Below are positions 11,617-58,840 of a stretch of DNA of 64,000 bases, one piece after another. Position 1 is the stretch's first letter. Every line of letters starts with the position of its first letter. Position numbers and translations under genes: made by a program. This stretch comes from an uncultured Bacteroidales bacterium (lineage in GTDB: Bacteria > Bacteroidota > Bacteroidia > Bacteroidales > VadinHA17). The notes under the pieces were generated by a model. That model had not been told where the DNA came from. It searched no databases and was given only the letters and a program-made list of their open reading frames with translations. The stretch lies in the NCBI GenBank assembly GCA_963765005.1, contig CAVXUP010000009.1, positions 269,609 to 333,608 on the forward strand, in the 5' to 3' direction.

Positions 11617-11643
11617 AAATACATAACCAGACAAAATAATACT

Positions 11644-12225: not shown

Positions 12226-12232
12226 AAAATAA

Positions 12233-42872: not shown

Positions 42873-43667
42873 TTAAACATCATTCTCCCCTTTTACATAT
42901 CCAAAGTTGGCAAGTATTCCACCGTCGACATAAAGGATATGTCCGTTTACGAAATTGCTTGCTTTTGATGCAAGGAAGAGGGCAGCATTGGCAACATCTT
43001 CCGGTTCACCCCATCTGCCTGCAGGTGTACGGGTCATAACAAGGTCATTAAAAGGGTGACCATTCTCACGTATAGGTGCTGTCTGCGAGGTAGCTATATA
43101 ACCCGGACCAATTCCATTGATCTGAATATTATATTTTGCCCATTCGCATGTCATGCTTTGTGTAAGCAGTTTAAGCCCTCCTTTTGCAGAAGCATAGGCT
43201 GAAACGGTATTCCTTCCATAGATGCTCATCATTGAGCACATATTAATGATCTTGCCGCCTCTTTTTCCGATCATTCCGGGTGCAACACGTTTAGATATTA
43301 TAAGCGGAGCTACAAGATCGACATCGATTACCTGTTTATAATCGGATATAGCCATGTCGAGTATTGGGATCCTTTTAATTATTCCGGCATTATTGACAAG
43401 GATATCGACTGCACCAACACTTTTTTCAATCATAGTTATGCCTTTATCCACATCTTTCTCATCTGTCACATTGAATCTGAGTGTAAAGACATCAAGACCC
43501 TCTTTTTTATAACTCTCTTTGCAGCTAAGCAGCTTGTCCTCATCCAGATCGTTTACACACACTCTGGCTCCAGCCTTGCCAAGAAGCAGTCCCACAGCCA
43601 ATCCTATTCCATGAGTGCCGCCGGTTACAAGAGCCACTTTTCCGCTTAAATCAAATAATTCTTTCAT
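42873..43667 (-). CDS. SDR oxidoreductase, gluconate 5-dehydrogenase / KduD-type (2-dehydro-3-deoxy-D-gluconate 5-dehydrogenase candidate)
   Basis: GKVALVTGGTHGIGLAV, NNAG, and the S-x12-Y-x3-K triad (YASAKGGLK). Adjacent to kduI. Confidence 0.75.
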   Translation of the reverse strand: MKELFDLSGKVALVTGGTHGIGLAVGLLLGKAGARVCVNDLDEDKLLSCKESYKKEGLDVFTLRFNVTDEKDVDKGITMIEKSVGAVDILVNNAGIIKRIPILDMAISDYKQVIDVDLVAPLIISKRVAPGMIGKRGGKIINMCSMMSIYGRNTVSAYASAKGGLKLLTQSMTCEWAKYNIQINGIGPGYIATSQTAPIRENGHPFNDLVMTRTPAGRWGEPEDVANAALFLASKASNFVNGHILYVDGGILANFGYVKGENDV

Positions 43668-43726
43668 AAGAGTTGGTATATAGTATTTATCTACTTTCTG
43701 TTAATCGTTACTTCCCTGAATTAAGA

Positions 43727-43830
43727 GTTGCAGGGTGCGGGGTGAAGATATTGCCACAGACTTCTATACTTAAACACGAAACCCGATCCGCCAGCCACCC
43801 GACGAAACACGAAACCCGAAACCCGAAACC
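43727..43830. repeat. G-rich heptamer arm (GGTGCGG) and C-rich heptamer arm (CCCGAAA)
   Basis: gttgcagggtgcggggtg ... cacgaaacccgatccgccagccacccgacgaaacacgaaacccgaaacccgaaacc. Confidence 0.95.
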
Positions 43831-43833
43831 ATT

Positions 43834-44670
43834 CTATTTAAGAGAATCAGGGTGTCTGACATCCATATCACTGTAATCGAGGTTTTCACCGGCCATTCCC
43901 CAGATGAAGGTATAGTTTGAGGTACCTGCAGCGCTATGAATACTCCATGAGGGAGAAAGCACAGCCTGGTCGTTTTTCATCCAGATATGTCGGGTTTCAT
44001 CAGGATCGCCCATGAAATGGCAGATCCCCTGTTTCTCAGGAACTTCGAAATAAAAATAAGCCTCCATTCGTCTGTTATGAGTATGTACAGGCATCGTATT
44101 CCAGACACTGCCGGGTTTCAGTTCTGTCATCCCCATCTGCAGCTGGCATGTTGGCAGCACGCTGTTTACAAGCAGTTTATTAATAGTTCTGTGATTCGAA
44201 GCCTCCATACTTCCCATCACCACAACTTCTGCATCTTTCAAAGTAACCTTTCCTGAAGGATACTTATGATGTGCAGGTGCCGAGTTGATGTAGAGCTTAG
44301 CAGGTTTTCCACTATCGGCCGATTTCAGAACAACATCCTTAACCTCTTTACCAAGATAAAGAGCCTCCTTATGTCCCAGGCTAAATGTCCCCTCCCCTGT
44401 TTCTATTACTGCAGCTCCTCCGACATTAATTATCCCCATCTCCCGTCGCTCAAGGAAATATGAGGCTTTCAGATCGTCGGCCGATTCGAGTTTAAGTGCC
44501 TGCTTAACGGGCATTGCACCCCCCACGATATACCTGTCGTACATACTGTATACCAGGGATATTTCATCAGGGACAAACACCTTCTCAATAAGGAATTCCT
44601 TCCTTACTTTATCGGTATCATACGTCTTAAAATCCTCAGGATGGACGGCGTATCTAAGTTCTAGTTTCAT
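43834..44670 (-). CDS. kduI: 5-dehydro-4-deoxy-D-glucuronate isomerase
   Basis: MKLELRYAVHPEDFKTYDTDKVRKEFLIEKVF...; cupin core with HTHNRRMEAYFYF; 278 aa, typical KduI length. Confidence 0.93.
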   Translation of the reverse strand: MKLELRYAVHPEDFKTYDTDKVRKEFLIEKVFVPDEISLVYSMYDRYIVGGAMPVKQALKLESADDLKASYFLERREMGIINVGGAAVIETGEGTFSLGHKEALYLGKEVKDVVLKSADSGKPAKLYINSAPAHHKYPSGKVTLKDAEVVVMGSMEASNHRTINKLLVNSVLPTCQLQMGMTELKPGSVWNTMPVHTHNRRMEAYFYFEVPEKQGICHFMGDPDETRHIWMKNDQAVLSPSWSIHSAAGTSNYTFIWGMAGENLDYSDMDVRHPDSLK

Positions 44671-44709
44671 ATTTTCAGGATTGGGTTGCTAATATAATTT
44701 TTGTTTCCA

Positions 44710-44790
44710 GGTGCGGGGTGCGGGGTGCGGGGTGCGGATTATTAAACTTCACCTCGCAACCCGAAACCCGAAACCCGAAACTTGAAACCC
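44710..44790. repeat. GGTGCGG x4 arm and CCCGAAA x3-4 arm
   Basis: ggtgcggggtgcggggtgcggggtgcgg ... cacctcgcaacccgaaacccgaaacccgaaacttgaaaccc. It ends at the stop codon of the GH105 gene. Confidence 0.95.
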
Positions 44791-45950
44791 TAAAGAATCC
44801 CCTTATCAATCAGCCTGGTAATCTCCGATCCTGCCATTAGGAAGCCTCCAACACCATAAACCTCTGTCATTTCGCGGGTGACAGCCTTGGGATCAGCTCC
44901 GATTGGCTGGATAAACCCTACTTTGCCATCGGGCCATACGGAAGCCACCATCGATTTCCAGCCTTTTACAACAGCAGGAAGATATGTCTCTTTGTCGAGA
45001 TATCCGTTTCCAATACCCCATGCCAGACCGAAAACAAAGAAAGCTGTTGCACTCATCTCGGGATTAGGATAGCTTGCAGGATCAAGAAGGCTGGCATGCC
45101 AGTATCCGTCGGCCGACTGGAGTGAAACCAGTTTTGCGGCCATTTCTTTGTATATTGTTACAAAATAATCCTTGTTCTCATATTTCGATGGAAGCTCCCT
45201 GATTATTATTGGCAGACCGGCAAAGACCCATCCATTGCCCCTGCCCCAGAAAACCTTCTCCCCATTTGCCTCTTTCCTTGTGAAATAATTCGAATCCCTG
45301 AAATAGAGATCTTCTTCTTTATCGTAAAGATAATCAGTAGTAACCTTGTATTCACTGTACATGAAATCCAGGTACTTCTTCTTCCCGGTCACATTTGCCA
45401 TTTTAGCCCATACAGTGGGTCCCATGAAAAGAGCATCGCACCACGACCACCGCTGTGTTGACCAATACTCCTTTGTATTGACAAACTTCAGGTCGCCTTT
45501 CGCCGGATCTTTCAACATCTGGTCGAGATAGGCCCTCATGGGTTTTATCATTTTCTTGTCGTTATACTTCCTGTATAATTCGATATAGGTTTGTCCTACA
45601 CAATAATCATCCGCATGGTATCTTCGAAGCGGGTTATCATGTTTATAATAATCCCATGACAAATTCTCACCTATTTCAACAAGCCATTTGTAATAAGAGT
45701 CGTCGCCGGCAATTGAGGCCCAATCAACCATACCTGCATAAAGAGCCGCGCTGGTCCAGTCTGCAGGGTTATGATTAAGGGGACTTTTAACCTGCCAGTC
45801 TGCTACTGCCTTAAGCACGGTTTTGATATCCTTTTTATTAAGATCCGAACTAAAAGGAGCACCTGATAACCCCTGGGAATAACCGGACAGTGTGAAAGGC
45901 ATTAACAGGACAAGCAAACTGATTTTCCAACAGGTCTTGGTATTCTTCAT
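44790..45950 (-). CDS. GH105/GH88-family unsaturated rhamnogalacturonyl/glucuronyl hydrolase
   Basis: Signal peptide. RWSWCDALFMGPTVWAKM, GRGNGWVFAGL, ATAFFVFGLAWGI motifs typical of the YteR/YesR-like (alpha/alpha)6 hydrolases. Confidence 0.85.
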   Translation of the reverse strand: MKNTKTCWKISLLVLLMPFTLSGYSQGLSGAPFSSDLNKKDIKTVLKAVADWQVKSPLNHNPADWTSAALYAGMVDWASIAGDDSYYKWLVEIGENLSWDYYKHDNPLRRYHADDYCVGQTYIELYRKYNDKKMIKPMRAYLDQMLKDPAKGDLKFVNTKEYWSTQRWSWCDALFMGPTVWAKMANVTGKKKYLDFMYSEYKVTTDYLYDKEEDLYFRDSNYFTRKEANGEKVFWGRGNGWVFAGLPIIIRELPSKYENKDYFVTIYKEMAAKLVSLQSADGYWHASLLDPASYPNPEMSATAFFVFGLAWGIGNGYLDKETYLPAVVKGWKSMVASVWPDGKVGFIQPIGADPKAVTREMTEVYGVGGFLMAGSEITRLIDKGIL

Positions 45951-46064
45951 AGATAAAATTTTAAATAAGTTCCATTCAATAAAAATAAGGCTGAAATTGT
46001 GATAATTATTAATAAAGAGATCAGAGAAAATTTGATAAATTGATTTGTAATATTTATTTTCGTG

Positions 46065-46076
46065 ATCGTTAACGAT
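46065..46076. promoter_or_regulatory. Perfect 12-bp palindrome ATCGTTAACGAT, a candidate LacI-type operator upstream of uxaC
   Basis: gtgATCGTTAACGATtca lies 45 nt upstream of ATG 46121, in the divergent GH105/uxaC intergenic region. A LacI-family regulator is encoded at 56349. Confidence 0.35.
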
Positions 46077-46120
46077 TCAGTCTCCTCAAATTTAAATAAA
46101 TTTATAATCCCACAGATAAG

Positions 46121-47524
46121 ATGAAACCATTTATTAATGAAAATTTTCTTCTAGGGAATAAAACAGCGGTTGAACTCTACCATAATTTTGCTGAAAATCA
46201 ACCAATTGTGGATTTTCACTGTCACTTGTCTCCATCGATGATTGCAGAGGACCGGCAGTTCACGAACCTCACTCAGGCCTGGCTGGAAGGAGATCATTAT
46301 AAATGGAGGGCCATGCGGACAAACGGAATCAATGAAAAATATTGCACGGGAAATGAACCGGATGTTGAAAAATTCAAAAAGTGGGCAGAAACCGTTCCTG
46401 CTACAGTTGGCAATCCTTTATATCACTGGACGCACCTTGAACTGGCAAGGTACTTCAATATAACAAAGCTTTTGTCGCCTTCAACAGCCCTTGATATTTA
46501 CGAAGAAGCTTCGGCTCTGCTCCAGACCAAAGAGTACACAACAAGAGCAATGATCTTAAAGATGAAGGCTGAGGTAATATGTACCACGGATGATCCGACT
46601 GATACTCTGGAGCACCACCTGAAACTCAGGGGCAGCTTTCCATCGAAGGTACTCCCGACCTGGAGGCCCGACAATGTAATTAAAACTGAAGATACAGTAA
46701 AGTTCCGTGCCTATATTCTCAGGCTTGGAGAAGTATGCGGCACGGAGATAAAGGATTTTTCAGGACTCATTGAGGCTCTTGACCAGCGTCACAGGTTCTT
46801 TCATGAGACAGGTGGCCGACTGTCAGATCATGGGCTTGAACGATTCTACTTTGCGCAGTATACATCCTCTGAAACAGATAAGATCTTCAAAAAGCTTCTT
46901 AAAGGTGACGATATTTCACCTGAAGAGACTGAAAAGTACAGAACAGCTATAATGACTGAGTTATGCAGGATGAACCATAAAAGAGGCTGGACTCAGCAAT
47001 TCCATGTAGGGGCGTTAAGAAATAACAATTCACGTGCCTTCAGACAGATGGGACCTGATACCGGCTGGGACTCTATAGGAAACTCTCAGGATTCAGTGAA
47101 AATATCAAAATTCCTGAGTTCTCTTGATGACAGTGATTCACTTGCAAAAACAATACTGTATAACCTGAATCCTGCTGATAATGAAATGATGATCACTATG
47201 GCCGGGAATTTTAATGACGGATCAACGGCGGTAAAAGTACAGTACGGGGCTGCATGGTGGTTCCTCGATCAGAAAAACGGGATGGAGAAACACCTGAAGG
47301 ATCTTGCATCACTGGGACTCTTAAGAAGGTTTATCGGTATGGTAACTGATTCAAGGAGCTTCCTCTCCTACCCGAGGCATGAGTATTTCAGAAGGCTGGC
47401 ATGCAACTTTGTGGGAGAAGAGGTAGAGAAGGGACTTATTCCCGACGAGGAGGAGCTGCTTAAACCATTGATTGAGGGTATTTGTTATACCAACGCAAGG
47501 AATTATTTTGGATTTAATAAATAA
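46121..47524 (+). CDS. uxaC: Glucuronate isomerase (uronate isomerase)
   Basis: FINENFLLGNKTAVELYHNFAENQPIVDFHCHLSP, GDHYKWRAMR, GNPLYHWTHLEL; 467 aa. Confidence 0.95.
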   Translation: MKPFINENFLLGNKTAVELYHNFAENQPIVDFHCHLSPSMIAEDRQFTNLTQAWLEGDHYKWRAMRTNGINEKYCTGNEPDVEKFKKWAETVPATVGNPLYHWTHLELARYFNITKLLSPSTALDIYEEASALLQTKEYTTRAMILKMKAEVICTTDDPTDTLEHHLKLRGSFPSKVLPTWRPDNVIKTEDTVKFRAYILRLGEVCGTEIKDFSGLIEALDQRHRFFHETGGRLSDHGLERFYFAQYTSSETDKIFKKLLKGDDISPEETEKYRTAIMTELCRMNHKRGWTQQFHVGALRNNNSRAFRQMGPDTGWDSIGNSQDSVKISKFLSSLDDSDSLAKTILYNLNPADNEMMITMAGNFNDGSTAVKVQYGAAWWFLDQKNGMEKHLKDLASLGLLRRFIGMVTDSRSFLSYPRHEYFRRLACNFVGEEVEKGLIPDEEELLKPLIEGICYTNARNYFGFNK

Positions 47525-47534
47525 GTAAGACTAT

Positions 47535-48377
47535 ATGAATGATCTGAATCTTAAAGGCAAAGTTGCCGTTATAACAGGGGGAGCAGGGATCATCTGCTCA
47601 ACAATGGCAAAATCTCTTGCCGCCCAGGGTGTAAAAACCGTTATACTTGATCTGAACAAGGAGGCCGCTCAGGAAGTTGCCAGAGAGATTGAGAAGGAAT
47701 TTAAAACCCAATCAATAGGAGTCTCCGCCAGCGTCCTTGACAAGGCGTCACTTGAGGCTGCAAGATCTGAGATAAATGAGATCCTCGGTCCAGTTGATAT
47801 CCTTGTAAATGGAGCAGGTGGCAATTCACCTGCTGCCACAACAAAGGTTGAAAAGATGGAGGGTACCGAAGATGAAAATCCGGCTGACACCTTTTTCGGA
47901 CTTCAGATTGAAGGCTTTGACAAGGTCTTTGATCTTAATTTCAAGGGAACCTTGCTGCCTACAATGGTTTTTGCATCTGATATGGTTATGAAGAAATCAG
48001 GGGTGATAATCAACATCTCATCGATGAACTCTTACAGGCCTCTCACAAAAATTGCAGCCTATTCTGCAGCCAAAGCTGCTGTTAATAATTTCACACAATG
48101 GCTGGCTGTGCACTTCTCCAAAACAGGGATAAGGGTAAATGCAATTGCCCCTGGGTTTCTCCTTACAAATCAGAACAGATTCCTCCTTATTGATGAGAAA
48201 ACCGGAGGGCTGACTCCAAGAGGTAAAAAAATCATAAACGGAACCCCGATGGAAAGGTATTGTCTCCCGGAAGAGTTAACAGGAACACTCATTTACCTTG
48301 TCTCCGACCTTTCGAAATTTGTCACAGGAATTGTAATACCTGTCGACGGGGGGTTTAGTGCATATAGTGGCGTATAG
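47535..48377 (+). CDS. SDR oxidoreductase, YjmF/UxuB-like (fructuronate/mannonate oxidoreductase candidate)
   Basis: GKVAVITGGAGIICSTMAKSLA, NGAGGN, and S...YSAAKAAV (Y-x3-K). Located directly after uxaC. Confidence 0.7.
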   Translation: MNDLNLKGKVAVITGGAGIICSTMAKSLAAQGVKTVILDLNKEAAQEVAREIEKEFKTQSIGVSASVLDKASLEAARSEINEILGPVDILVNGAGGNSPAATTKVEKMEGTEDENPADTFFGLQIEGFDKVFDLNFKGTLLPTMVFASDMVMKKSGVIINISSMNSYRPLTKIAAYSAAKAAVNNFTQWLAVHFSKTGIRVNAIAPGFLLTNQNRFLLIDEKTGGLTPRGKKIINGTPMERYCLPEELTGTLIYLVSDLSKFVTGIVIPVDGGFSAYSGV

Positions 48378-48505
48378 GAGTAGCGGCGTAGCGGCGTAAT
48401 GGCGTAATGGCGTAATGGCTTAGTGACGTAATGGAATATTGGTAAAAGTATTATAAGTAAGGATTCTGAATAAAAACACGAAACCCGAAACCCGAAACCC
48501 GAAAC
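48378..48505. repeat. Octamer array (GGCGTAAT/GGCGTAGC), then a heptamer array (CCCGAAA x3.5)
   Basis: gagtagcggcgtagcggcgtaatggcgtaatggcgtaatggcttagtgacgtaatgg ... cacgaaacccgaaacccgaaacccgaaac. Confidence 0.95.
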
Positions 48506-48520
48506 TAAAAACTATTTGAG

Positions 48521-49810
48521 ATGGCTAGAAATGTAATAGTTGCACAATCAGGGGGGCCATCCCCGGTCATAAACAGCTCGTTAAGGGGCATCATCGAGAC
48601 CTGCAGGATGTTTCCGGATAAATTTGGAAAAGTCTATGGCGGATGGCATGGCATTGAAGGGGTGCTAAACGAGGAGCTTCTGGATCTTTCCTCACAAAAT
48701 GAGGAGGAAATAGCGCTTCTGAGAAATACCCCTGCAGCAGGAAGTATTGGTACCTGCCGTTATAAACTAAAGGATAAACAGCAGAAGGATTTTCAGAGAA
48801 TTATGGAGGTTTTTCAGGCTCACGACATTGGGTATTTCTTCTATATCGGGGGAAATGACTCGCAGCATACTGCTTTTAAAGTCAGCGAGCTTGCAAAGAC
48901 AAAGGGCCTTGATCTCATTGCTGTCGGGGTTCCGAAAACAATTGACAATGATGTTGGCGACAATGAGTTCAAACTCATCGACCATACTCCTGGTTATGGC
49001 AGTGTTGCAAGATACTGGTCGCATATAATCCAGAATGCGAATGAAGAAAATATGGGATCTGCTCCGGCAGACCCTGTGCTTGTTATACAGGCGATGGGAA
49101 GGAAAATCGGTTACATACCTGCAGCAGCAAGGCTTGCCGATCCTAAAAGGGAAATGCCCTTGCAGATCTATATGGCTGAGTCAAAGGTTTCAATTGAAAC
49201 CCTTGCCGACAATGTAAATAATCAGCTGAAGGCAGATGGAAGATGCCTTGTTGTCATAAGTGAAGGTTTTGACGTTGGGACGATCGGTGAGGTAAAGGAT
49301 GCTTTTGGACATACCTCTTTTGGCTCGAGCCAGAATTCCGTCTTCCAGACTGTAGTCAACTACCTGAACAGCAAAGGACTGAAGGCAAGGGGAGCTGCCC
49401 GCGGACAGGTTATGGGCACCGATCAGCGTCATACCACGGCATATGCCTCCATCGTCGATCTTGATGAAGCATACAAGGTTGGACAGAAAGCTGTTGAAAT
49501 AGCACTATATGAAGGAAACGGCTGGATGGCAACAATACTCAGGGAACCGGGCTTGATTTATAATGTGCGCTACGATAAGGTACCTCTTGAAAAGGTTGCT
49601 CTGTCTGAAAGGACCTTCCCTGAAAAATGGATAGCCCCGAACAGGTACGATGTAACGGACGAGTTTCTTGCTTACGTCAGGCCACTCGTCGGAGAAGACT
49701 GGCCATCGGTTCCTATGATTAACGGAAGACAGCGATTCTCGCGGCTCGAAATGAAATTCGCCGATAAAATACTTCCATCCTATAATCTGGAAGCCTATGA
49801 GAAACAATGA
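48521..49810 (+). CDS. Phosphofructokinase-family enzyme with the PPi-dependent signature (Asp/Lys)
   Basis: VAQSGGPSPVINSS, YIGGNDSQ (fourth residue Asp rather than Gly), GVPKTIDNDV (Lys rather than Gly), MGRKIGYI. Confidence 0.8.
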   Translation: MARNVIVAQSGGPSPVINSSLRGIIETCRMFPDKFGKVYGGWHGIEGVLNEELLDLSSQNEEEIALLRNTPAAGSIGTCRYKLKDKQQKDFQRIMEVFQAHDIGYFFYIGGNDSQHTAFKVSELAKTKGLDLIAVGVPKTIDNDVGDNEFKLIDHTPGYGSVARYWSHIIQNANEENMGSAPADPVLVIQAMGRKIGYIPAAARLADPKREMPLQIYMAESKVSIETLADNVNNQLKADGRCLVVISEGFDVGTIGEVKDAFGHTSFGSSQNSVFQTVVNYLNSKGLKARGAARGQVMGTDQRHTTAYASIVDLDEAYKVGQKAVEIALYEGNGWMATILREPGLIYNVRYDKVPLEKVALSERTFPEKWIAPNRYDVTDEFLAYVRPLVGEDWPSVPMINGRQRFSRLEMKFADKILPSYNLEAYEKQ

Positions 49811-49819
49811 TTAAAATTA

Positions 49820-49890
49820 TTCGGTCTTCGGTCTTGACTTTTGTCTTTTCACTTTTATCTTTTTACTTTTGTACTTTTATCTTTTGTCTT
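49820..49890. repeat. Graded heptamer array (GGTCTTC decaying to CTTTTNT)
   Basis: ttcggtcttcggtcttgacttttgtcttttcacttttatctttttacttttgtacttttatcttttgtctt. Confidence 0.95.
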
Positions 49891-49900
49891 AAAATATCAT

Positions 49901-50782: not shown

Positions 50783-50856
50783 CAGGGTGCAGGGTGCAAG
50801 GTGCAAGGTGCAGGGTGCAGGGTGCAAGGTGCAAGGTGTAAGGGAAGAAAGGAAGG
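50783..50856. repeat. Heptamer array (GGTGCAG/GGTGCAA x9)
   Basis: cagggtgcagggtgcaaggtgcaaggtgcagggtgcagggtgcaaggtgcaaggtgtaagggaagaaaggaagg begins 1 nt after the stop. Confidence 0.95.
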
Positions 50857-50877
50857 ACATTTAATAATATCAAAGCT

Positions 50878-52149
50878 ATGATATACTTTAAAGCAGGATC
50901 TGAGAACAGTGTGATTGGCCATAAAGATCTGGAGGCAGGTCTTTATGAGGCGCTTGAAAAGCTCGGAGCAAGGAAGAAAGTACTTGTTGTTCCTCCTGAT
51001 TTCACAAGGTTCCACTCGAGAGCCGGTGATATCACCTCTTTAATCTACAATTATTACAAAGATGGATTAAAGGACGTACTTCCTGCTCTCGGAACTCATG
51101 CACCTATGTCAGATTATGAACTTAATGAAATGTTCAGAGGTGTTCCGAAGGAGCTATTTCGCATTCACGACTGGAGGAAGGATGTTGTTACTGTTGGCAC
51201 CGTCCCTGGCGAATTTGTATCAGGTATTACTGACGGGGCTGTTGACTACTCATGGCCTGCTCAGCTAAACAACCTTGTTTATAACGGAGGGCATGATCTT
51301 ATTATCTCTGTTGGTCAGGTTGTCCCTCACGAGGTGATAGGAATGGCAAACTATAACAAGAACCTTTTTGTGGGAACAGGTGGTCCCGAAGGAATCAATA
51401 AGAGCCATTTTATCGGAGCCGTATATGGCATGGAGCGAATCATGGGAAAAGCAGACAATCCTGTCCGGAGCCTTCTGAACTATGCTTCAGCCAATTTCAC
51501 AAAACATCTTCCCATTGTCTATGTGCACACTGTAATTGGCCGTAATGAGGCTGGGAAGCTTGTAATACGTGGACTTTTTATAGGCGACGACGAGGAAGTT
51601 TTCAGACTTGCTGCAGAGCTCTCCATCAAAGTAAACTTTACTCTGGTTGAAAAACCACTGCAAAAAGTTGTTGTATATCTCGATCCTGCAGAATTTAAAA
51701 GCACCTGGCTTGGAAATAAAAGCATATACAGGACAAGAATGGCGATGGCTGATAACGGGGAACTGATAGTGCTGGCCCCGGGTTTGAAAGAGTTTGGAGA
51801 AGATAAGGAGATCGACAGGCTGATAAGAAAATACGGTTACTTCGGAACGCCTCAAACACTGAAATCGCTTAAAGAAAATGAAGAGCTGAGATCTAATCTG
51901 AGCGCTGCCGCTCACCTTATCCATGGCAGCTCGGAAGGAAGATTCTCGATTACATATTGTCCCGGCTCTCTCTCTGAACAGGAGATAGAATCAGTGAATT
52001 TCAGATATCACGATCTTAAAGAAATGATAAGTAAATATAATCCTGAAAAACTGAATGAGGGATTTAACACGTTGGGTGACGGCGAGGAGATATTTTATAT
52101 TTCAAATCCGGCCCTCGGACTATGGACCTCAAAAGAAAGACTTACATAA
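50878..52149 (+). CDS. LarA-like (DUF2088, nickel-pincer-dependent 2-hydroxyacid racemase/epimerase superfamily) protein
   Basis: VVPPDFTRFHS (the D-x-T-R motif). GQVVPHEVIGMANYNKNLFVG (His then Lys at +10, spaced like LarA His174/Lys184). KSHFIG. Confidence 0.7.
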   Translation: MIYFKAGSENSVIGHKDLEAGLYEALEKLGARKKVLVVPPDFTRFHSRAGDITSLIYNYYKDGLKDVLPALGTHAPMSDYELNEMFRGVPKELFRIHDWRKDVVTVGTVPGEFVSGITDGAVDYSWPAQLNNLVYNGGHDLIISVGQVVPHEVIGMANYNKNLFVGTGGPEGINKSHFIGAVYGMERIMGKADNPVRSLLNYASANFTKHLPIVYVHTVIGRNEAGKLVIRGLFIGDDEEVFRLAAELSIKVNFTLVEKPLQKVVVYLDPAEFKSTWLGNKSIYRTRMAMADNGELIVLAPGLKEFGEDKEIDRLIRKYGYFGTPQTLKSLKENEELRSNLSAAAHLIHGSSEGRFSITYCPGSLSEQEIESVNFRYHDLKEMISKYNPEKLNEGFNTLGDGEEIFYISNPALGLWTSKERLT

Positions 52150-52176
52150 CATAAAGTATCATAGGAGATTTCCGGA

Positions 52177-53166
52177 ATGATAAACTGGGGTATAATAGGC
52201 TGCGGCAATGTCACCGAGGTAAAGAGCGGTCCTGCATTTAACAAGATCAGGGATTCCAGACTTATTGCCGTAATGCGAAGAGACCGGCAGATGGCTGAGG
52301 ATTATGCCAGCAGGCATAATGTTCCAAAAGTTTACTCCGATGCATCAGACCTTATAAATGACAAGGATATTGACGCGGTTTATATCGCGACACCTCCGGG
52401 AAGTCATGCCGGATATGCAATTGAAGTTATCAAAGCACGAAAACCTGTTTATATCGAGAAACCGATGGCTGCCAGTTATGCTGAATGCCAGATGATAAAC
52501 CTTGCGGCGGAGAAGCATAATGTGCCGGTCTTCGTTGCCTACTACAGAAGAGCTCTTCCCGGATTCCTGAAGGTAAAAGAGCTTATCGAGGAAGGTAAGA
52601 TCGGGAAGGTGCGCTTTGTTCAGATCGAGCTGTTCAAACCAGCTTCAATTGAAGAAAAATCCGGAAATCCTTCGTGGCGTGTTAATCCCGAAATTGCAGG
52701 AGGGGGACATTTTTTCGATCTGGCATCTCATCAACTGGATTATCTTGATTATCTTTTCGGACCGATTGTAAAAACAGCATCGGTGGTACTTAACCAGGCC
52801 GGACTTTATGAAGCAGAAGACATGGTTGCTGCCAGCTTTATATTTGAAAATGGTGTAGCAGGATCAGGGATATGGTGCTTCAGCGTTTCGCCTGAATTGC
52901 GAAGAGACACAATCGAGATTATCGGGGAAAAGGGAGCAATCAGTTTTTCCACATTCAGTTTTGAATCAATAAAGGTTACAACTGAAACAGGGATACATGA
53001 ATATGAGAACGAACGGCCTGAGCACGTGCAATACTACCTGATTGAAAAAATCGTTCAGGAACTTGAAGGCAAAGGGAAATCACCGAGTACCGGGATAACT
53101 GCTGCAAGAACAAGCAGGATAATGGATGAAATTGTGAAAGAATATTACAGGGGAAAAAGACAGTAG
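52177..53166 (+). CDS. Gfo/Idh/MocA-family NAD(P)-dependent oxidoreductase
   Basis: INWGIIGCGNV Rossmann start, AVYIATPPGSHAGYA, VYIEKPMA. Confidence 0.9.
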   Translation: MINWGIIGCGNVTEVKSGPAFNKIRDSRLIAVMRRDRQMAEDYASRHNVPKVYSDASDLINDKDIDAVYIATPPGSHAGYAIEVIKARKPVYIEKPMAASYAECQMINLAAEKHNVPVFVAYYRRALPGFLKVKELIEEGKIGKVRFVQIELFKPASIEEKSGNPSWRVNPEIAGGGHFFDLASHQLDYLDYLFGPIVKTASVVLNQAGLYEAEDMVAASFIFENGVAGSGIWCFSVSPELRRDTIEIIGEKGAISFSTFSFESIKVTTETGIHEYENERPEHVQYYLIEKIVQELEGKGKSPSTGITAARTSRIMDEIVKEYYRGKRQ

Positions 53167-53168
53167 AC

Positions 53169-53240
53169 TGAAGACCGAAGACCGAAGACCGAAGACAGAA
53201 GTCAGAAGTAAGAAGTAGGAAGTAAAAAGTAAGAAGACAA
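53169..53240. repeat. Graded heptamer array (GAAGACC x3 decaying via GAAGACA, GAAGTCA, GAAGTAA...)
   Basis: tgaagaccgaagaccgaagaccgaagacagaagtcagaagtaagaagtaggaagtaaaaagtaagaagacaaaa. The unit is the reverse complement of the unit at 49820. Confidence 0.95.
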
Positions 53241-53264
53241 AATAGAAATCATAAATTATTAATT

Positions 53265-54719
53265 ATGAACAAATTATCTGATATTGGTTTAGTAGGACTT
53301 GCGGTAATGGGTGAGAATCTTGTACTCAATATGGAGAGTAAGGGCTTCCAGGTAACCGTGTATAACCGTTCAACCCAGAAGGTTGATGAGTTTCTTGCAG
53401 GCAGGGCAAAGGGCAAGAAAATAATTGGATCTCATACAGTCGAAGAGCTTATAAGCTCCCTTGAAAAACCGAGAAAAGTTATGCTGATGATAAAAGCAGG
53501 AAAGGCTGTTGACGAGATGATAGAAACACTTATCCCCCACTTGTCGCCCGGCGATATAATAATTGACGGAGGCAACACACATTTCCCTGACACAAACAGG
53601 CGTACTGCATATGTTGAGAGCAAGGGTCTTCTCTACATTGGCACCGGGGTATCGGGAGGTGAAGAGGGTGCACTGCTTGGCCCTTCAATAATGCCGGGCG
53701 GGTCAAAGGCAGCATGGCCTGTAGTGAAGCCGATTTTCCAGGCTATAGCAGCCAAGGTTGAGGATGGATCTCCATGTTGCGACTGGGTCGGTGAGAATGG
53801 TGCCGGCCATTTTGTAAAAATGGTACATAACGGGATAGAGTATGGCGATATGCAGCTCATTTGTGAGGCGTACCAGATAATGAGAGACTTGCTGCATATG
53901 AGCGCTGACGAAATGCACGTGGTCTTCCGCGAATGGAACAAGGGTGAACTTGACAGTTACCTGATTGAGATAACGAGAGATATACTGGCTTATAAAGATA
54001 CCGATGGGAAACCGCTTGTTGACAAGATTCTTGACACTGCAGGACAGAAAGGGACTGGAAAATGGACAGGTGTTGCTGCACTTGATCTCGGTATTCCTCT
54101 TACCCTTATAGGTGAAGCAGTATTCTCAAGGTGCCTCTCTGCCGTAAAGGATGAAAGAGTAAAAGCATCAGCAATACTCAAGGGACCTTCATCTGAGTTT
54201 AAAGGTGACAAAACAGCTTTTATAAACGATCTCAGGGATGCCTTATATGCTTCTAAAATAGTCTCGTATGCCCAGGGTTATGCCCTTATGCAGGCTGCAG
54301 CTGAAGAGTATAAGTGGAAGTTGAATTATGGAGGAATTGCTCTGATGTGGAGAGGAGGATGCATAATCAGATCAGCCTTCCTTGGTAAAATAAAAGAGGC
54401 TTTCGATAATAATCCTGACATAACAAATTTACTTCTTGATCCATTCTTCACAGAAAAAGTTGAAAAAGCACAGAAAGGATGGAGAAATGTCGTATCGGCA
54501 GCTGTCAGTAACGGAATACCTGTCCCTGCAATATCTTCAGCTCTGGGATACTTCGACGGATACCGCTGTGAAAAGCTTCCTGCAAACCTCCTTCAGGCAC
54601 AGCGTGACTATTTCGGAGCGCACACATACGAGCGCACAGATAAACCACGCGGCGAATTTTTTCATACAAACTGGACAGGGCGCGGAGGAACCACTGCATC
54701 TTCAACTTACAATGTCTAA
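53265..54719 (+). CDS. gnd: 6-phosphogluconate dehydrogenase, decarboxylating
   Basis: IGLVGLAVMGENLVLNMESKGF, IIDGGNT, GTGVSGGEEGA, HFVKMVHNGIEYGDMQLI, QAQRDYFGAHTYER. Confidence 0.95.
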   Translation: MNKLSDIGLVGLAVMGENLVLNMESKGFQVTVYNRSTQKVDEFLAGRAKGKKIIGSHTVEELISSLEKPRKVMLMIKAGKAVDEMIETLIPHLSPGDIIIDGGNTHFPDTNRRTAYVESKGLLYIGTGVSGGEEGALLGPSIMPGGSKAAWPVVKPIFQAIAAKVEDGSPCCDWVGENGAGHFVKMVHNGIEYGDMQLICEAYQIMRDLLHMSADEMHVVFREWNKGELDSYLIEITRDILAYKDTDGKPLVDKILDTAGQKGTGKWTGVAALDLGIPLTLIGEAVFSRCLSAVKDERVKASAILKGPSSEFKGDKTAFINDLRDALYASKIVSYAQGYALMQAAAEEYKWKLNYGGIALMWRGGCIIRSAFLGKIKEAFDNNPDITNLLLDPFFTEKVEKAQKGWRNVVSAAVSNGIPVPAISSALGYFDGYRCEKLPANLLQAQRDYFGAHTYERTDKPRGEFFHTNWTGRGGTTASSTYNV

Positions 54720-54742
54720 GCTCATAAACTAATCTAACCCGG

Positions 54743-56269
54743 ATGACAGAACTAAACAAAAAAATCAGTAAGTACAGGTGGACTATCTGTGCACTTGTAT
54801 TCTTTGCAACGACTGTAAACTATCTCGACAGACAGGTTCTCAGTCTCTTAAAGGATACTCTGGAAGTACAATTCAACTGGAGTGATTCAGATTATGCCAA
54901 TATTGTTTCAGCATTTCAGTTTGTCTATGCAATTTCAATGCTCTTTGCCGGCCGCTTCATAGACTGGCTTGGAACAAAATGGGGATATGCCTGGTCGCTG
55001 ATAATCTGGTCGCTGGCAGCAATGGGACATGCCCTTGCAAAGAGCACAGGCGGATTCATGATAGCCCGTGGTTTTCTCGGATTTGGAGAATCAGGCAACT
55101 TCCCGGCTGCTATCAAGACAACTGCAGAGTGGTTTCCCAAAAAAGAAAGAGCACTTGCAACAGGAATCTTTAATTCCGGCACCAATGTCGGCGCTATCCT
55201 TGCACCGATTGTTGTCCCATGGATAGTCGGTCATCTTGGATGGGAAGCAGCATTTATAATAATCGGAGCCATAGGATTCACATGGCTTATATTCTGGTTC
55301 TGGCTTTACGAAATACCGACAAGAAGCAAACGGGTTAGCAAGGCTGAATTTGACTATATCCATGCTGACAATTTTGATGAAGCAAACACTGCCATTCCTG
55401 AAAATACCGAAAAGGTACCCTGGTTCAAGCTTCTGAAATTCAAACAGACATGGGCCTTCAGCTTTGGTAAATTTATGACTGACGGAGTCTGGTGGTTTTA
55501 TTTATTCTGGCTGCCTGCATACCTGAAAGCTCAGTATGGAATGACCGGAATGCAGGTTGCATTCCCGCTGGCAGTATTATATACAATGTCAACAGTCGGC
55601 AGCATCACAGGCGGGTGGTTTCCCATGTACTTCATTAAAAAGGGCTATGACCCATATACCGGACGAATGAAAGCAATGCTTCTAATAGCAGTATTCCCTC
55701 TTCTTGTTCTTCTCGCCCAGCCTCTGGGAAGCATAAGCTACTGGATGCCTGTTTTGATAATCGGAGTTGGAACCGCTGCTCACCAGGCCTGGTCAGCTAA
55801 TATATTTACCACTGTTTCTGACATGTTCCCGAAAAAGACAGTTGCAAGTGTTACAGGAATTGGCGGCATGGCCGGCGGTATCGGAGGTATAGTAGTAAAC
55901 AAATCAGGAGGCTGGCTTTTTGACAGTTTCAGGGCAGGTGGAATAGCAAAATCCTGGATTGAGGCCCAGTCGCAAAACCTTGGTGAGTATGTGGATAAAA
56001 TAAGATCCATGAACCTGATGAACAAGTATGATGATGTTATCAATCTGGATAAAGTATCCCTGAATAATCTGCCCTCGGAAGTTGTGCAGCAACTGCAGGC
56101 CGTTGATCCGGCTATGTTTGATAAACTTAAGGCGATACAGGTCCCTATAGTACAGAGCAACATGACAACTGCTTATACTCTTGTCTTTGTCTTCTGTGCT
56201 TTGGCATACCTGATTGCCTGGGCTGTAATGCATTTTATGGTCCCAAAAATGAAAAAAGTTGAGATCTGA
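54743..56269 (+). CDS. exuT: MFS transporter, hexuronate (ExuT/ACS-family)-like
   Basis: YRWTICALVFFATTVNYLDRQVLS, GRFIDWLGTKWGY, 12 TM pattern, and the hexuronate gene context. A soluble insertion of about 80 aa precedes the last TM. Confidence 0.7.
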   Translation: MTELNKKISKYRWTICALVFFATTVNYLDRQVLSLLKDTLEVQFNWSDSDYANIVSAFQFVYAISMLFAGRFIDWLGTKWGYAWSLIIWSLAAMGHALAKSTGGFMIARGFLGFGESGNFPAAIKTTAEWFPKKERALATGIFNSGTNVGAILAPIVVPWIVGHLGWEAAFIIIGAIGFTWLIFWFWLYEIPTRSKRVSKAEFDYIHADNFDEANTAIPENTEKVPWFKLLKFKQTWAFSFGKFMTDGVWWFYLFWLPAYLKAQYGMTGMQVAFPLAVLYTMSTVGSITGGWFPMYFIKKGYDPYTGRMKAMLLIAVFPLLVLLAQPLGSISYWMPVLIIGVGTAAHQAWSANIFTTVSDMFPKKTVASVTGIGGMAGGIGGIVVNKSGGWLFDSFRAGGIAKSWIEAQSQNLGEYVDKIRSMNLMNKYDDVINLDKVSLNNLPSEVVQQLQAVDPAMFDKLKAIQVPIVQSNMTTAYTLVFVFCALAYLIAWAVMHFMVPKMKKVEI

Positions 56270-56275
56270 TTTCCT

Positions 56276-56340
56276 GAATGAAAATGTTAAGCATCCGGTT
56301 GATATTTCAGCCGGATGTTTCATTGAAAACATTTTTTATT
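56276..56340 (+). terminator. Structured region with a T-run after the transporter gene (rho-independent terminator candidate)
   Basis: catccgg (56292-98) pairs with ccggatg (56311-17). The outer gaaaatgtt pairs with aacattttt, followed by the T-run tttttt (56332-56337). Confidence 0.55.
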
Positions 56341-56348
56341 AATTCAAA

Positions 56349-57404
56349 ATGCCTCCCAAAAAAGCAAGGATAAAAGATATTGCCAGGCTTGCCGGTGTTT
56401 CAATAGGTACTGTTGACAGGGTGCTTCATAAAAGAGGTGAAGTTGCAGAAAAGACACTTGCCAGGGTCCAGAAGATTCTTAAGGAGACCAACTATTCCCC
56501 AAATGTAATGGCCCAGGTGCTTAAATCAAAAAGAAGTTTTCACCTGGTTTCCATACTGCCCAAGCCGACAGAGGATAACTCCTTCTGGAGCAAGCATCCT
56601 GAAGGAATGAGGCGAGCCATTTCAGAACTTGATCCATTTCCGGTTAGTCTCACCGAGATTACTTTTGATATGCAGAGTGAAAAAGACTTTCAGAAAAAAG
56701 CCTCTTCCCTTTTCGGTCTGAAACCTGATGGTGTAATCCTTGCTCCCATTTTTAAATCCGAATCAATTGTTTTTGCAGAGAGGCTGGCGAAGGAGAACAT
56801 TCCCCTTGTCTTTATTGACGGATTCATAGAAAACACTGAATTTCTTGCTTATATAGGTGAAAATATTTTTTCAAGCGGCAGGGTGGCCGGACAGCTTATC
56901 GACCTGGTAACACCTGAAACCAGGGATATCCTGATTGTTAACATAGCAAGAAACATCAGAAATGTTCATCACCTCGAAACCCGTGCCATGGGTTTCCAGA
57001 GCTTTTTCAACGACAATCACAACAGCAAGGGAAAACGTATAATGATTATGATACCTGATCCGTCAGTTCAGAGCATTAAAAAAGCAATGGACAATGCACT
57101 GAAGGAAAACCCTGAAATAGGATCAGTTTTCCTGACAGGATCAAGGTCGTATCTTATTGCAAATTACCTTCAGGAAAAAGGAATTGATACAATTAACCTT
57201 GTTGGTTATGATCTTCTCGACGAAAACATCGCGCCGCTGAGGACCGGAATCACCAGGTTCCTCCTAAACCAGCGTCCGGATGAGCAAACCTATAAAGCTG
57301 TAAAGAAGCTCTTTGAGTATCTGTCGATGCATAAGGTACCTGATAAAATTGAATATCTTCCGGTAGATATCGTAACTTCGGAAAATGTGGATTTCTATTT
57401 ATAG
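56349..57404 (+). CDS. LacI-family transcriptional regulator
   Basis: N-terminal HTH ARIKDIARLAGVSIGTVDRVLHKRGEVAEKTLARVQKILKETNYSPN, then a periplasmic-binding-fold sugar sensor domain. Confidence 0.9.
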   Translation: MPPKKARIKDIARLAGVSIGTVDRVLHKRGEVAEKTLARVQKILKETNYSPNVMAQVLKSKRSFHLVSILPKPTEDNSFWSKHPEGMRRAISELDPFPVSLTEITFDMQSEKDFQKKASSLFGLKPDGVILAPIFKSESIVFAERLAKENIPLVFIDGFIENTEFLAYIGENIFSSGRVAGQLIDLVTPETRDILIVNIARNIRNVHHLETRAMGFQSFFNDNHNSKGKRIMIMIPDPSVQSIKKAMDNALKENPEIGSVFLTGSRSYLIANYLQEKGIDTINLVGYDLLDENIAPLRTGITRFLLNQRPDEQTYKAVKKLFEYLSMHKVPDKIEYLPVDIVTSENVDFYL

Positions 57405-57405
57405 T

Positions 57406-57500
57406 CCAATTACCCAAAACATCACCAATGACCCCCAATTACCAATGACCAATTACCAATCACCAATCACCAATTACCATTACCAATCATAAATCACAAT
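57406..57500. repeat. Heptamer array (CCAATNA: TACCAAT/CACCAAT/GACCAAT, about 12 units)
   Basis: ccaattacccaaaacatcaccaatgacccccaattaccaatgaccaattaccaatcaccaatcaccaattaccattaccaatcataaatcacaat. Confidence 0.95.
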
Positions 57501-57507
57501 AAGAAAG

Positions 57508-58758
57508 ATGAAAACACTTGGCAAATATTCCATAGGAATGGGCGACAGATTCGGACACCAGGCAGGAGCCCAGCTTGCAGCGATAATAAAAGCAGCCGAC
57601 AATGGGGTCGAAATAACCCCTGTATGGAATAAATCAAACAGGGAACACACAACAATCGGGACTCTCCCATGGGATGTCCGGATTGAGGCTGATGCAGCTG
57701 TTAAAAAGGCAGGATACAGAAAACCATTTTTCGTCGATGCCGACCATATCAATTTTGATACAGTTGACAGGTTTATTGAGAGTTCTGACTTTTTCACCAT
57801 TGATGTTGCATCTTACATTGGAAAGACAGCCGAAGAGAAGAGTATTTCAGCATTTGTTGAGAGTGTGGAAAAGTATACGGGCGAATTGAAAATTTCGGGA
57901 ACCATGTCACTGAATACGACGAGGGAACAGATAAAATCGATAACCGGGAAATATCTTTTTGCTGCAATAAGGGCCGGAGAGATCTTCAGAAAGATTGAGA
58001 CGATTAAAGGCGAGGGAAAATTCGTCACTGAAGTATCAATGGATGAGGTGCCTGAACCTCAGACTCCGGTTGAACTTCTTTTTATTCTAAAGATGCTTTC
58101 AGATGAAAACATTCCGGTTCAGACAATTGCGCCGAAATTCTCCGGAAGGTTTAATAAGGGAGTCGACTATGTTGGCGATCCTCTTAAGTTTGCTGAGGAG
58201 TTTGAGGCAGACCTGCTGGTGATCGATTTTGCCGTGAAGGAATTCGGGTTGCCTGAGAATCTTAAGATGAGCATACATTCAGGTTCCGACAAATTTGCAA
58301 TTTACCCGCATATTGGTTCTGTAATCAGGAAATATGACAAGGGAATTCATCTGAAAACCGCTGGAACCACCTGGCTCGAAGAGGTTATAGGACTGGCTGT
58401 TTCGGGAGGAAAAGGACTTGAATTTGCCAAAGACATATATATCGGATCGCTTGAGGATATTGAGGAGTTATGCGCTCCATATGCTGACGTTATAGATATA
58501 AATACAGGCTTGCTCCCGGCAGCAGCTGACGTTAAATCGTGGAACGCTGAAAAGTTTGCCGATAGTCTGCGACATGTTCCGGGAAACAAAAACTATAATC
58601 CGAACATGAGGCAGCTTATTCATGTGGCATATAAGCTGGCAGCTAAAAGGATGGATGAATATTTCGCCCTGCTCGAAGCCAATGAAAAAGTAGTGTCACA
58701 ATGTGTTTTTGAAAACATCTACGACAGACATATCTGCCGCTTGTTCGATATCAGTTGA
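57508..58758 (+). CDS. uxaE: Tagaturonate/fructuronate epimerase (UxaE-family)-like protein
   Basis: YSIGMGDRFGHQAGAQL and FFVDADHI resemble the GDR-G and D-A-DH motifs I associate with the UxaE family. The size and hexuronate context fit. Not verified by search. Confidence 0.6.
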   Translation: MKTLGKYSIGMGDRFGHQAGAQLAAIIKAADNGVEITPVWNKSNREHTTIGTLPWDVRIEADAAVKKAGYRKPFFVDADHINFDTVDRFIESSDFFTIDVASYIGKTAEEKSISAFVESVEKYTGELKISGTMSLNTTREQIKSITGKYLFAAIRAGEIFRKIETIKGEGKFVTEVSMDEVPEPQTPVELLFILKMLSDENIPVQTIAPKFSGRFNKGVDYVGDPLKFAEEFEADLLVIDFAVKEFGLPENLKMSIHSGSDKFAIYPHIGSVIRKYDKGIHLKTAGTTWLEEVIGLAVSGGKGLEFAKDIYIGSLEDIEELCAPYADVIDINTGLLPAAADVKSWNAEKFADSLRHVPGNKNYNPNMRQLIHVAYKLAAKRMDEYFALLEANEKVVSQCVFENIYDRHICRLFDIS

Positions 58759-58777
58759 TAAGAATCACCCATAGTTA

Positions 58778-58840
58778 CGCTGGCGCGGATTTGTAATCCG
58801 TGCCTATTAATTTGGCCCCGATTACAAATCGGCGCCAGCG
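58778..58840. terminator. Long imperfect inverted repeat (20/21 bp) between convergent genes
   Basis: cgctggcgcggatttgtaatc (58778-58798) and gattacaaatcggcgccagcg (58820-58840), with a 21-nt loop. Confidence 0.7.

Follow-up and report, generated by a model that had tools for sequence, protein, structure and literature searches.

The closest described counterpart of the system considered here is the pectin-induced galacturonate operon of Thermotoga maritima, gnd-uxaR-uxaE-uxaD-gntE-gntK (PMC3750489), whose epimerase GntE2 (PDB 4NAR) belongs to group 20 of the LarA homologues (LarAH20) and has demonstrated activity (PMC7583248). A second is known from extracts of Lactobacillus suebicus, in which an ATP-dependent mannonate kinase is followed by a 6-phosphomannonate 2-epimerase that yields 6-phosphogluconate, the genes for both being unknown (PMC6978723). 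A third point of reference is group 18 of the LarA homologues (LarAH18), labelled 'G2E3' by Desguin et al. (2020), for which a hexonate substrate was only hypothesised and whose neighbours, according to the supplementary data, include short-chain dehydrogenases/reductases (SDRs; 36%), gnd (32%), ribokinase-family kinases (16%), UxaC and KduI (PMC7583248). Here we describe a hexuronate locus built around a LarAH18 gene in an uncultured Bacteroidales bacterium (genome G000; 4.38 Mb, 12 contigs, 97.6% complete); the window denotes the whole 64,000-nucleotide stretch of contig 9 that was analysed, and positions without a contig prefix refer to it.

The locus resembles each of these systems in part. 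With the Thermotoga operon it shares entry through UxaC and UxaE, the conversion of fructuronate to mannonate, a LarA-type epimerase dependent on nickel-pincer nucleotide (NPN), exit through gnd and the link to pectin and uronates; the original prediction had pointed to a similar uxaE/gnd arrangement in Thermotoga, and the route is indeed already published there (PMC3750489). It differs in that the epimerase belongs to group 18 and not 20, a PFK (phosphofructokinase)-family kinase is present and an FGGY gluconokinase is not, genes for a haloacid dehalogenase (HAD)-type hydrolase and a Gfo/Idh/MocA oxidoreductase are added, and the regulator is of the LacI and not the GntR type. The predicted route shares with L. 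suebicus the redox-neutral passage from mannonate through 6-phosphogluconate to ribulose-5-phosphate without a dehydratase branch, whereas activities were seen there and candidate genes alone are described here, and the likely phosphoryl donor is pyrophosphate (PPi) here and ATP there (Valk et al., 2020; PMC6978723). Group 18 includes the window protein, and the SDR, gnd, UxaC and KduI genes near it are among the neighbours published for the group, but the PFK-family (COG0205) neighbour, the HAD partner and the obligate coupling to alternative kinases are not in that table (PMC7583248). The idea of a path from mannonate to 6-phosphogluconate is largely anticipated by the work on Thermotoga (2012 and 2020), on L. 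suebicus (2020) and on group 18 (Desguin et al., 2020). What the present analysis adds is the PFK-family enzyme, very probably in place of the sugar-acid kinase that usually accompanies LarAH18; a full-text literature search returned no paper besides PMC6978723 that mentions mannonate kinase, and no paper in which a PFK-family kinase is connected to LarA-type enzymes.

Our leading conclusion is that LarAH18 has an obligate kinase partner and that, in this role, a PFK-family and probably PPi-dependent sugar-acid kinase appears to have taken the place of a PfkB kinase more than once. In the route that we propose, uronates would be isomerised by UxaC, tagaturonate would be converted to fructuronate by UxaE, and fructuronate would be reduced to free D-mannonate by the SDR. 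The hexonate, probably mannonate, would then be phosphorylated at C6 by the PFK-family enzyme, probably with PPi, and inverted at C2 by the NPN enzyme LarAH18 to give 6-phosphogluconate, which Gnd would convert to ribulose-5-phosphate with loss of CO2, regaining the reducing equivalent spent by the SDR. The net result would be the conversion of glucuronate and galacturonate to ribulose-5-phosphate without a dehydratase. We give this fully specified, kinase-first route a probability of roughly 0.45; that the PFK-type protein is the kinase of the route, in whichever order the steps run, we consider likely. The proposal builds on observed gene identities, genome-wide absences, cofactor genes, cluster conservation, complementary kinases and an insertion/deletion within the genus. 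UxaC, UxaE, the fructuronate reductase, the LarA-type epimerase and Gnd are encoded together in one operon here, an arrangement that recurs in related loci, and the genes that matter for the route are the following.

46121-47524, plus strand: UxaC, uronate isomerase (glucuronate to fructuronate, galacturonate to tagaturonate); PF02614, 661 bits, full length
47535-48377, plus strand: SDR-type fructuronate reductase / D-mannonate oxidoreductase; NF006132, 397 bits (cut-off 281)
48521-49810, plus strand: PFK-family protein; PF00365, 127 bits; NF010675, 371 bits
49901-50782, plus strand: HAD subfamily-IA hydrolase; PF13419
50878-52149, plus strand: LarA homologue, group 18 (LarAH18); NF052594, 661 bits (661.6; cut-off 500)
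53265-54719, plus strand: Gnd, decarboxylating 6-phosphogluconate dehydrogenase; TIGR00873, 788 bits
57508-58758, plus strand: UxaE-like tagaturonate/fructuronate epimerase; PF16257, 176 bits (cut-off 27)

Kinases that accompany LarAH18

At least 585 LarAH18 relatives came from a scan in which each species was represented by a single genome, and the 80 best were compared as loci. These 80 are 67-87% identical and come from at least six phyla (Bacteroidota, Ignavibacteriota, Verrucomicrobiota, Acidobacteriota, Planctomycetota and others). Over the 47 loci with full 10-kb flanks, the partners of LarAH18 are SDR (44), gnd (38), UxaC (34) and UxaE (32) genes and, more rarely, Gfo/Idh/MocA (18), HAD (7) and PFK-type (6) genes. 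Where both are present, the PFK-type and HAD genes always occur as a pair between the SDR and LarAH18 genes (8 of the 80 loci, 81-92% identity). Many other loci encode a PfkB kinase of about 359 amino acids (PfkB2) directly upstream of LarAH18, and one of them (L089) has the order SDR-PfkB2-HAD-LarAH18; PfkB2 shares 27% identity with the canonical KdgK encoded in the same genome, and none of the curated families scored against it reaches its cut-off. Because the PFK-HAD pair sits where PfkB2 sits elsewhere, the PFK-type gene appears to occupy the slot of a sugar-acid kinase.

The distribution of the two kinases was followed in an evenly drawn sample of 301 Bacteroidales genomes, the same set being searched for each gene. 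LarAH18 is encoded in 62 of them, about a fifth. PFK-type orthologues (at least 70% identical) occur in 15 genomes from 13 GTDB families, and all 15 are LarAH18-positive; PfkB2 occurs in 47 genomes, 46 of which are LarAH18-positive, leaving a single PfkB2 gene among the 239 LarAH18-negative genomes. The two kinases are complementary: 14 LarAH18-positive genomes have the PFK type only, 45 have PfkB2 only, 2 have neither and 1 has both, this last being a 7-Mb bin of 1120 contigs with 6% contamination. Five families include members of both kinds. An independent phylum-level sample (200 genomes) yielded one more PFK-type orthologue, in a LarAH18-positive genome, and none in the 187 LarAH18-negative ones. 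The original prediction had pointed out that the PFK-family, HAD and Gfo/Idh/MocA genes sit where a kinase would be expected; the phyletic distribution strongly supports the PFK-type protein as the kinase.

Two genomes of the same genus give a closer view of the exchange. In G125 the syntenic locus (KduD, KduI, GH88, UxaC, SDR, LarAH18, Gfo, Gnd, MFS, LacI, UxaE, GH88) has no PFK-HAD, the gap between SDR and LarAH18 is about 270 bp, and PfkB2 lies on another contig. In G245 PfkB2 stands next to pgi, and in G000 the orthologues of the flanking genes bracket a GH3 glycosidase. Given this synteny, G000 has gained PFK-HAD in the operon and lacks PfkB2 at the ancestral site, and PFK-HAD is very probably a two-gene insert that functionally replaced the KdgK-like PfkB kinase, a non-orthologous replacement. 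At the compared site (G000 C4:152289-156056 and L104 5136-8703), the 377-amino-acid flanking gene of G245 is split in G000 into open reading frames (ORFs) of 185 and 294 amino acids, an arrangement that points to a frameshift or pseudogene bordering the replaced segment.

On the wider scale, members from Ignavibacteriota, Acidobacteriota and Planctomycetota nest within Bacteroidota in a tree of 78 LarAH18 sequences. Because of this cross-phylum nesting and of identities of at least 67%, the cluster seems horizontally spread and strongly constrained. To account for the PFK-carrying loci, this tree requires four or more gains or losses. As with Pfk-1 and Pfk-2 of E. coli, two unrelated kinase folds appear to do one step; unlike those enzymes, the two types act here in sugar-acid catabolism and replace, and do not accompany, each other.

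Eleven loci (L059, L072-L076, L084, L088 at 11297-12433, L091, L092 and L094) have a gene for a PdxB-like 2-hydroxyacid dehydrogenase between LarAH18 and gnd; the protein scores 433.4 bits against a PdxB cut-off of 434, and a copy is encoded in G000 as well, at another site. The reaction of PdxB is the oxidation of a phosphorylated sugar acid at its 2-hydroxyl, and this neighbour may hint at phosphorylated hexonate intermediates or may equally be a housekeeping gene.

The PFK-type protein and its possible substrates

The window had been described as holding no recognisable gluconate kinase, and this holds genome-wide for the SKI type and the FGGY gluconokinase models. SKI-type GntK was not found in the whole genome, in which no protein reaches TIGR01313 or TIGR01314, and of the FGGY proteins of the genome none scores high enough for the gluconokinase model; they are a fuculokinase, a ribulokinase, a xylulokinase-like protein whose best model is XylB at a score under its cut-off, an unassigned protein and a fragment of a glycerol kinase. 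UxuA has no match genome-wide, tblastn with UxuA being likewise empty at E<=1e-3, and neither the altronate/galactarate dehydratase domain of UxaA nor a Mannitol_dh-type UxaB/UxuB was found in the whole genome. Only two PfkB proteins are encoded, neither of them KdgK-like, and tblastn of the genome with a genuine KdgK and with the LarAH18-linked PfkB kinase gave nothing at E<=1e-3. An Eda-type aldolase for 2-keto-3-deoxy-6-phosphogluconate (KDPG) is encoded on another contig (C1:644225-644899), next to a major facilitator superfamily (MFS) gene; a kinase for 2-keto-3-deoxygluconate (KDG) was searched for around eda on contig 1, and none was found. Because Eda is encoded there, the KDG branch is truncated, with its kinase missing, and not wholly absent. 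Thus, the predicted absence of uxuA, uxaA, uxaB, kdgK and eda is correct for the window and extends to the genome for the first four, but not for eda, and none of uxuA, kdgK and eda lies just beyond the window.

The truncated branch raises the question of whether the PFK-type and PfkB2 proteins are simple KDG kinases that serve the KduI/KduD and UxuA branches with no tie to LarAH18. G000 has GH88 genes, KduI and KduD (42873-45950, 58846-60039) and Eda, but no recognisable KDG kinase, and the same gap is seen in eight more LarAH18-positive Bacteroidales genomes, making nine with KduI and Eda and without KdgK; PfkB2 is itself a distant KdgK paralogue. Yet 39 of the 62 LarAH18-positive genomes encode a canonical KdgK or a third KdgK-like type alongside the coupled kinase, and 40 UxuA-positive, LarAH18-negative genomes have neither coupled kinase. 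Moreover, nine LarAH18-positive genomes with a coupled kinase have no KduI, Eda or UxuA; these belong to a set made up of the 23 LarAH18-positive genomes that lack KdgK and of G036, which has only a KdgK pseudogene, and include G098, which is 98% complete and of the PFK type. Because a KDG kinase would lack both its substrate and its follow-up enzyme there, the primary role of the coupled kinase would lie with LarAH18, and an exclusive KDG-kinase role is highly improbable. A secondary, moonlighting KDG-kinase activity in G000, for which the PFK-type enzyme is the natural candidate, is conceivable though somewhat unlikely.

The PFK-type protein retains an intact catalytic set (GGNDS, PKTIDND, MGR and SEG), with Asp in the place of Gly104 and Lys in that of Gly124 (GGN-D-S, P-K-TIDND). 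An Asp/Lys pair at these positions marks PPi-dependent PFKs, and the protein probably uses PPi as phosphoryl donor. The ligands of the 6-phosphate of fructose 6-phosphate (F6P), namely R162, R243, H249 and R252 in E. coli PfkA numbering, served as a test of substrate and were mapped through the PfkA-like paralogue of the genome itself, which is approximate in the C-terminal half. The equivalents of R162 and H249 are Pro and Thr, invariant in 9 orthologues, and those of R243 and R252 are retained; thus, the full four-ligand set of a 6-phosphofructokinase is not present. The Asn of GGNDS was rejected as a sign of changed function, as two other paralogues here share it and the nearest solved homologues have Gly.

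These features can be set against the PPi-dependent PFKs of NF010675/PRK14072, whose structural-genomics entries 3k2q (254 bits) and 3hno (247 bits) are the nearest solved relatives. The protein resembles them in fold, length, catalytic motifs and the Asp/Lys pair and differs in the Pro/Thr at R162/H249, in its location in a uronate operon, in its occurrence only in LarAH18 genomes and in the mutual exclusion with PfkB. It could be argued that the protein is an ordinary PPi-dependent 6-phosphofructokinase that handles F6P derived from ribulose-5-phosphate, the hexonate kinase being some other, unrecognised protein. It exceeds the cut-off of the NF010675 PPi-PFK subfamily, its catalytic residues are intact, and the databases contain more than 120 clusters with 83% or higher identity to it, of which the named ones all read 6-phosphofructokinase or ATP-/PPi-dependent phosphofructokinase. 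Even so, the genome already holds three further PFK paralogues, one of the same subfamily and 32% identical, and glycolysis predicts neither the confinement to LarAH18 genomes nor the exclusion of PfkB2. The gene also fills the slot of the PfkB kinase, and genomes of the PFK type would be left without any hexonate kinase. This explanation is, in our judgement, very improbable.

A different substrate for the same kinase is a further alternative. F6P 1-kinases occur in both the PFK and the PfkB families, as E. coli Pfk-1 and Pfk-2 illustrate, and the PFK-type protein might phosphorylate fructuronate or tagaturonate at C1, with reduction and epimerisation following on phosphorylated intermediates. 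The C6 carboxylate of such a substrate could mimic the 6-phosphate of F6P, PFK chemistry targets the C1 hydroxyl of an anionic 2-ketose, and the alteration of two of the four 6-phosphate ligands might suit the smaller carboxylate. However, the single SDR comes from a family that makes free mannonate, and the loci share no conserved reductase dedicated to a phosphorylated keto-acid, the Gfo/Idh/MocA gene being present in only 18 of 47. UxuA, in addition, is encoded in 26 of the 62 LarAH18-positive genomes, sometimes contiguously as UxuA-kinase-(HAD)-LarAH18 and with a single SDR; because of this contiguity and the single SDR, free mannonate would be the natural branch point. We therefore regard phosphorylation of the keto-uronate as improbable and continue with a hexonate as the substrate of the PFK-type protein.

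LarAH18, its cofactor and the order of steps

The LarA homologue of the operon scores above the curated equivalog cut-off of NF052594, 'nickel-dependent putative hexonate epimerase'. It aligns to T. maritima GntE2 (4NAR) with 126 bits and about 30% identity, and with the residue mapping of GntE2 onto LarA taken from PMC7583248, the superfamily residues used as a test (Arg75, Lys184 and His200 for NPN binding; Asp72, His108, His174 and Lys298 for catalysis; L. plantarum LarA numbering) are all kept. In particular, the D-x-T-R motif, both catalytic His, the tethering Lys, the Ni-binding His and the alpha11 Lys are retained, and PPDFTR, GTHAP, PHEV...NYNK, KSHF and WLGNK lie at positions equivalent to those of GntE2. 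The protein also matches the published group-18 signature (D R H H E V K H. W L N K S A A L I H S). The genes for cofactor synthesis, larC-larE-larB, are contiguous and intact at C1:388074-390928 (LarC1 and LarC2 models, 212 and 153 bits; LarE, 297 bits; LarB, an intact ORF of 249 amino acids with an AIRC domain). LarAH18 thus looks catalytically competent as an NPN/nickel-dependent 2-hydroxyacid epimerase, and the LarA-superfamily gene stands as a candidate hexonate epimerase, as had been predicted, through its NF052594 match, its complete set of NPN and catalytic residues and the encoded LarB, LarC and LarE.

By sequence membership, LarAH18 falls outside GntE (LarAH groups 19 and 20) and constitutes a separate family. 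The substrate-facing signature positions read L/N/H/S in LarAH18 and T/G or A/N/R in groups 19 and 20, while the loop and alpha11 features (H-E-V, W..K) are common to LarAH18, GntE1 and GntE2. We propose that LarAH18 is a (6-phospho)mannonate/(6-phospho)gluconate 2-epimerase. The predicted path from hexuronate through fructuronate and mannonate, by C2 epimerisation and phosphorylation, to 6-phosphogluconate and ribulose-5-phosphate is supported and fits all the evidence; it had been written in the order mannonate, gluconate, 6-phosphogluconate, and the kinase may instead come first, as in L. suebicus (PMC6978723).

In the Thermotoga order, LarAH18 would epimerise free mannonate to gluconate and the PFK-type protein would be a gluconate 6-kinase. 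GntE1 and GntE2 act on the free acids, and group 18 was labelled 'G2E3' by Desguin et al. (PMC7583248); the loop and alpha11 features shared with GntE point the same way, and the genomic context data fit this order equally well. On the other side, LarAH18 belongs to a separate family, distant from GntE2, and the opposite order occurs in nature, in L. suebicus. The coupled kinases, finally, are near-confined to LarAH18 genomes, the exception being the one PfkB2 gene among 239; a gluconate kinase would be useful alone, whereas 6-phosphomannonate would be useless without the epimerase. Because of this confinement and the L. suebicus precedent, we favour the kinase-first order and consider the epimerase-first order unlikely, though a serious contender; substrates and phosphoryl donor, like the order of these two steps, are inferred.

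The HAD protein may belong to the same chemistry. Its motifs (DSDGC, SQT, the Lys K205 and GDxxGD, here GDAxGD) are invariant in 11 orthologues, and it is of the phosphatase or phosphomutase type with an enlarged cap; a Foldseek search of its AlphaFold2 (AF2) model (pLDDT 87.6) against the PDB gave generic subfamily-IA matches only (TM 0.4-0.5), and a search of curated families gave no match. All 8 loci that carry the PFK-type gene have the HAD gene, as do 5 in which no PFK was called (two of these 5 are cut off by the contig edge), and it accompanies LarAH18 with either kinase type. A phosphatase that relieves the build-up of phospho-hexonate is a reasonable guess. In its most specific form, the proposal would make the PFK-type protein a PPi-dependent D-mannonate 6-kinase, LarAH18 a 6-phosphomannonate 2-epimerase and the HAD protein a safety-valve phosphatase for times when nickel or NPN is limiting; that all three assignments are right together is rather unlikely. 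A second kinase-plus-HAD pairing exists in this genome: a 487-amino-acid protein encoded at C9:409216-410679, about 76 kb past the end of the window, fuses an RfaE-like PfkB domain to a C-terminal HAD motif I (FDHDGT).

Several points weigh against the kinase-first route with a PFK-type kinase. Two LarAH18-positive genomes carry neither kinase type, and the sampled genomes are related, so that Fisher values overstate significance. With its catalytic residues complete and two of the four 6-phosphate ligands retained, the PFK-type protein may have F6P activity. The group-18 signature contains no obvious extra basic residue for a phosphate and has Ser where GntE has Arg, and GntE1 (LarAH19) and GntE2 (LarAH20) epimerise free mannonate and gluconate (PMC7583248). 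Gnd, too, takes part in the oxidative pentose-phosphate pathway, zwf being present, and its operon position is suggestive and not diagnostic.

Other genes of the locus and significance of the route

The region 42873-58840 consists of two divergent transcription units. The minus arm encodes a KduD-type SDR, KduI and GH88, and the plus-strand operon (46121-58758) has the order UxaC, SDR, PFK-family protein, HAD, LarA homologue, Gfo/Idh/MocA, Gnd, MFS, LacI and UxaE, its spacers measure 10-143 bp, and its one strong hairpin lies 3' of the last gene. The start of the HAD gene is probably 49901 and not the TTG at 49841, as judged by comparison with 10 orthologues. All the genes that the original prediction had listed (uxaC, UxaE, SDR, LarA-type, gnd, ExuT-like, LacI, kduI and KduD-like) were found where it had placed them. 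The features beyond those given above are as follows.

42873-43667, minus strand: KduD-type SDR (2,5-diketo-3-deoxygluconate to KDG); NF005488, 423 bits (cut-off 369); also KduD models
43834-44670, minus strand: KduI, 5-dehydro-4-deoxy-D-glucuronate isomerase; NF002091, 428 bits (cut-off 250); PF04962
44790-45950, minus strand: GH88 unsaturated glucuronyl hydrolase; PF07470, 293 bits
46065-46076, no strand: palindrome ATCGTTAACGAT, candidate LacI operator, 45 nt upstream of uxaC
52177-53166, plus strand: Gfo/Idh/MocA oxidoreductase; PF01408/PF22725
54743-56269, plus strand: MFS transporter of the hexuronate/galactonate (ExuT-like) type; PF07690; TIGR00893 below its cut-off
56349-57404, plus strand: LacI-family regulator; PF00356 and PF13407
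58778-58840, plus strand: hairpin with 27-nt arms, likely operon terminator; inverted repeat 89% complementary, terminator-like match

Copies of the KduD-type SDR that are 75-90% identical are present in related loci. The Gfo/Idh/MocA protein gave only non-specific matches, with no specific curated family or solved structure. The palindrome ATCGTTAACGAT has one perfect copy genome-wide and five one-mismatch copies that lie at unrelated places and yield no LacI regulon. Short tandem arrays of 7-nt units occupy nearly all operon spacers (48481-48511, 49820-49882, 50782-50837, 53157-53205 and 57435-57497), the unit differing from spacer to spacer (AAACCCG, TTCGGTC/TTTTxTC, GCAGGGT/GCAAGGT, AAGACCG and CCAATxA); those 3' of the PFK gene and 3' of the Gfo gene are mutual reverse complements (TTCGGTCTTCGGTCTT / AAGACCGAAGACCGAA, 100%).

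The operon gnd is the single genome-wide gnd match, and zwf stands alone on contig 12 (C12:109609-111138). As zwf is present, gnd also serves the oxidative pentose-phosphate pathway and was rejected as decisive proof of the route. That pathway would conversely rely on a gnd embedded in a LacI-linked uronate operon, with zwf on a separate contig.

Anaerobic Bacteroidota draw much of their carbon from the uronic acids of pectin, hemicellulose and host glycans, and a dehydratase-free, redox-neutral route to pentose phosphate would alter the predicted fermentation balance and make growth on uronates nickel-dependent. A standard reconstruction would score the 36 of 62 LarAH18-positive genomes without UxuA as hexuronate non-users. 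Were the kinase-first proposal true in its most specific form, the PFK-type protein would be the first PFK-family member known to act on a non-phosphorylated sugar acid and, together with LarAH18 and PfkB2, would provide the first genes for both orphan activities of L. suebicus. Should the PFK-type protein prove to be a hexonate kinase, the PFK family would gain a new substrate class, and '6-phosphofructokinase' would be the wrong name for hundreds of database entries.

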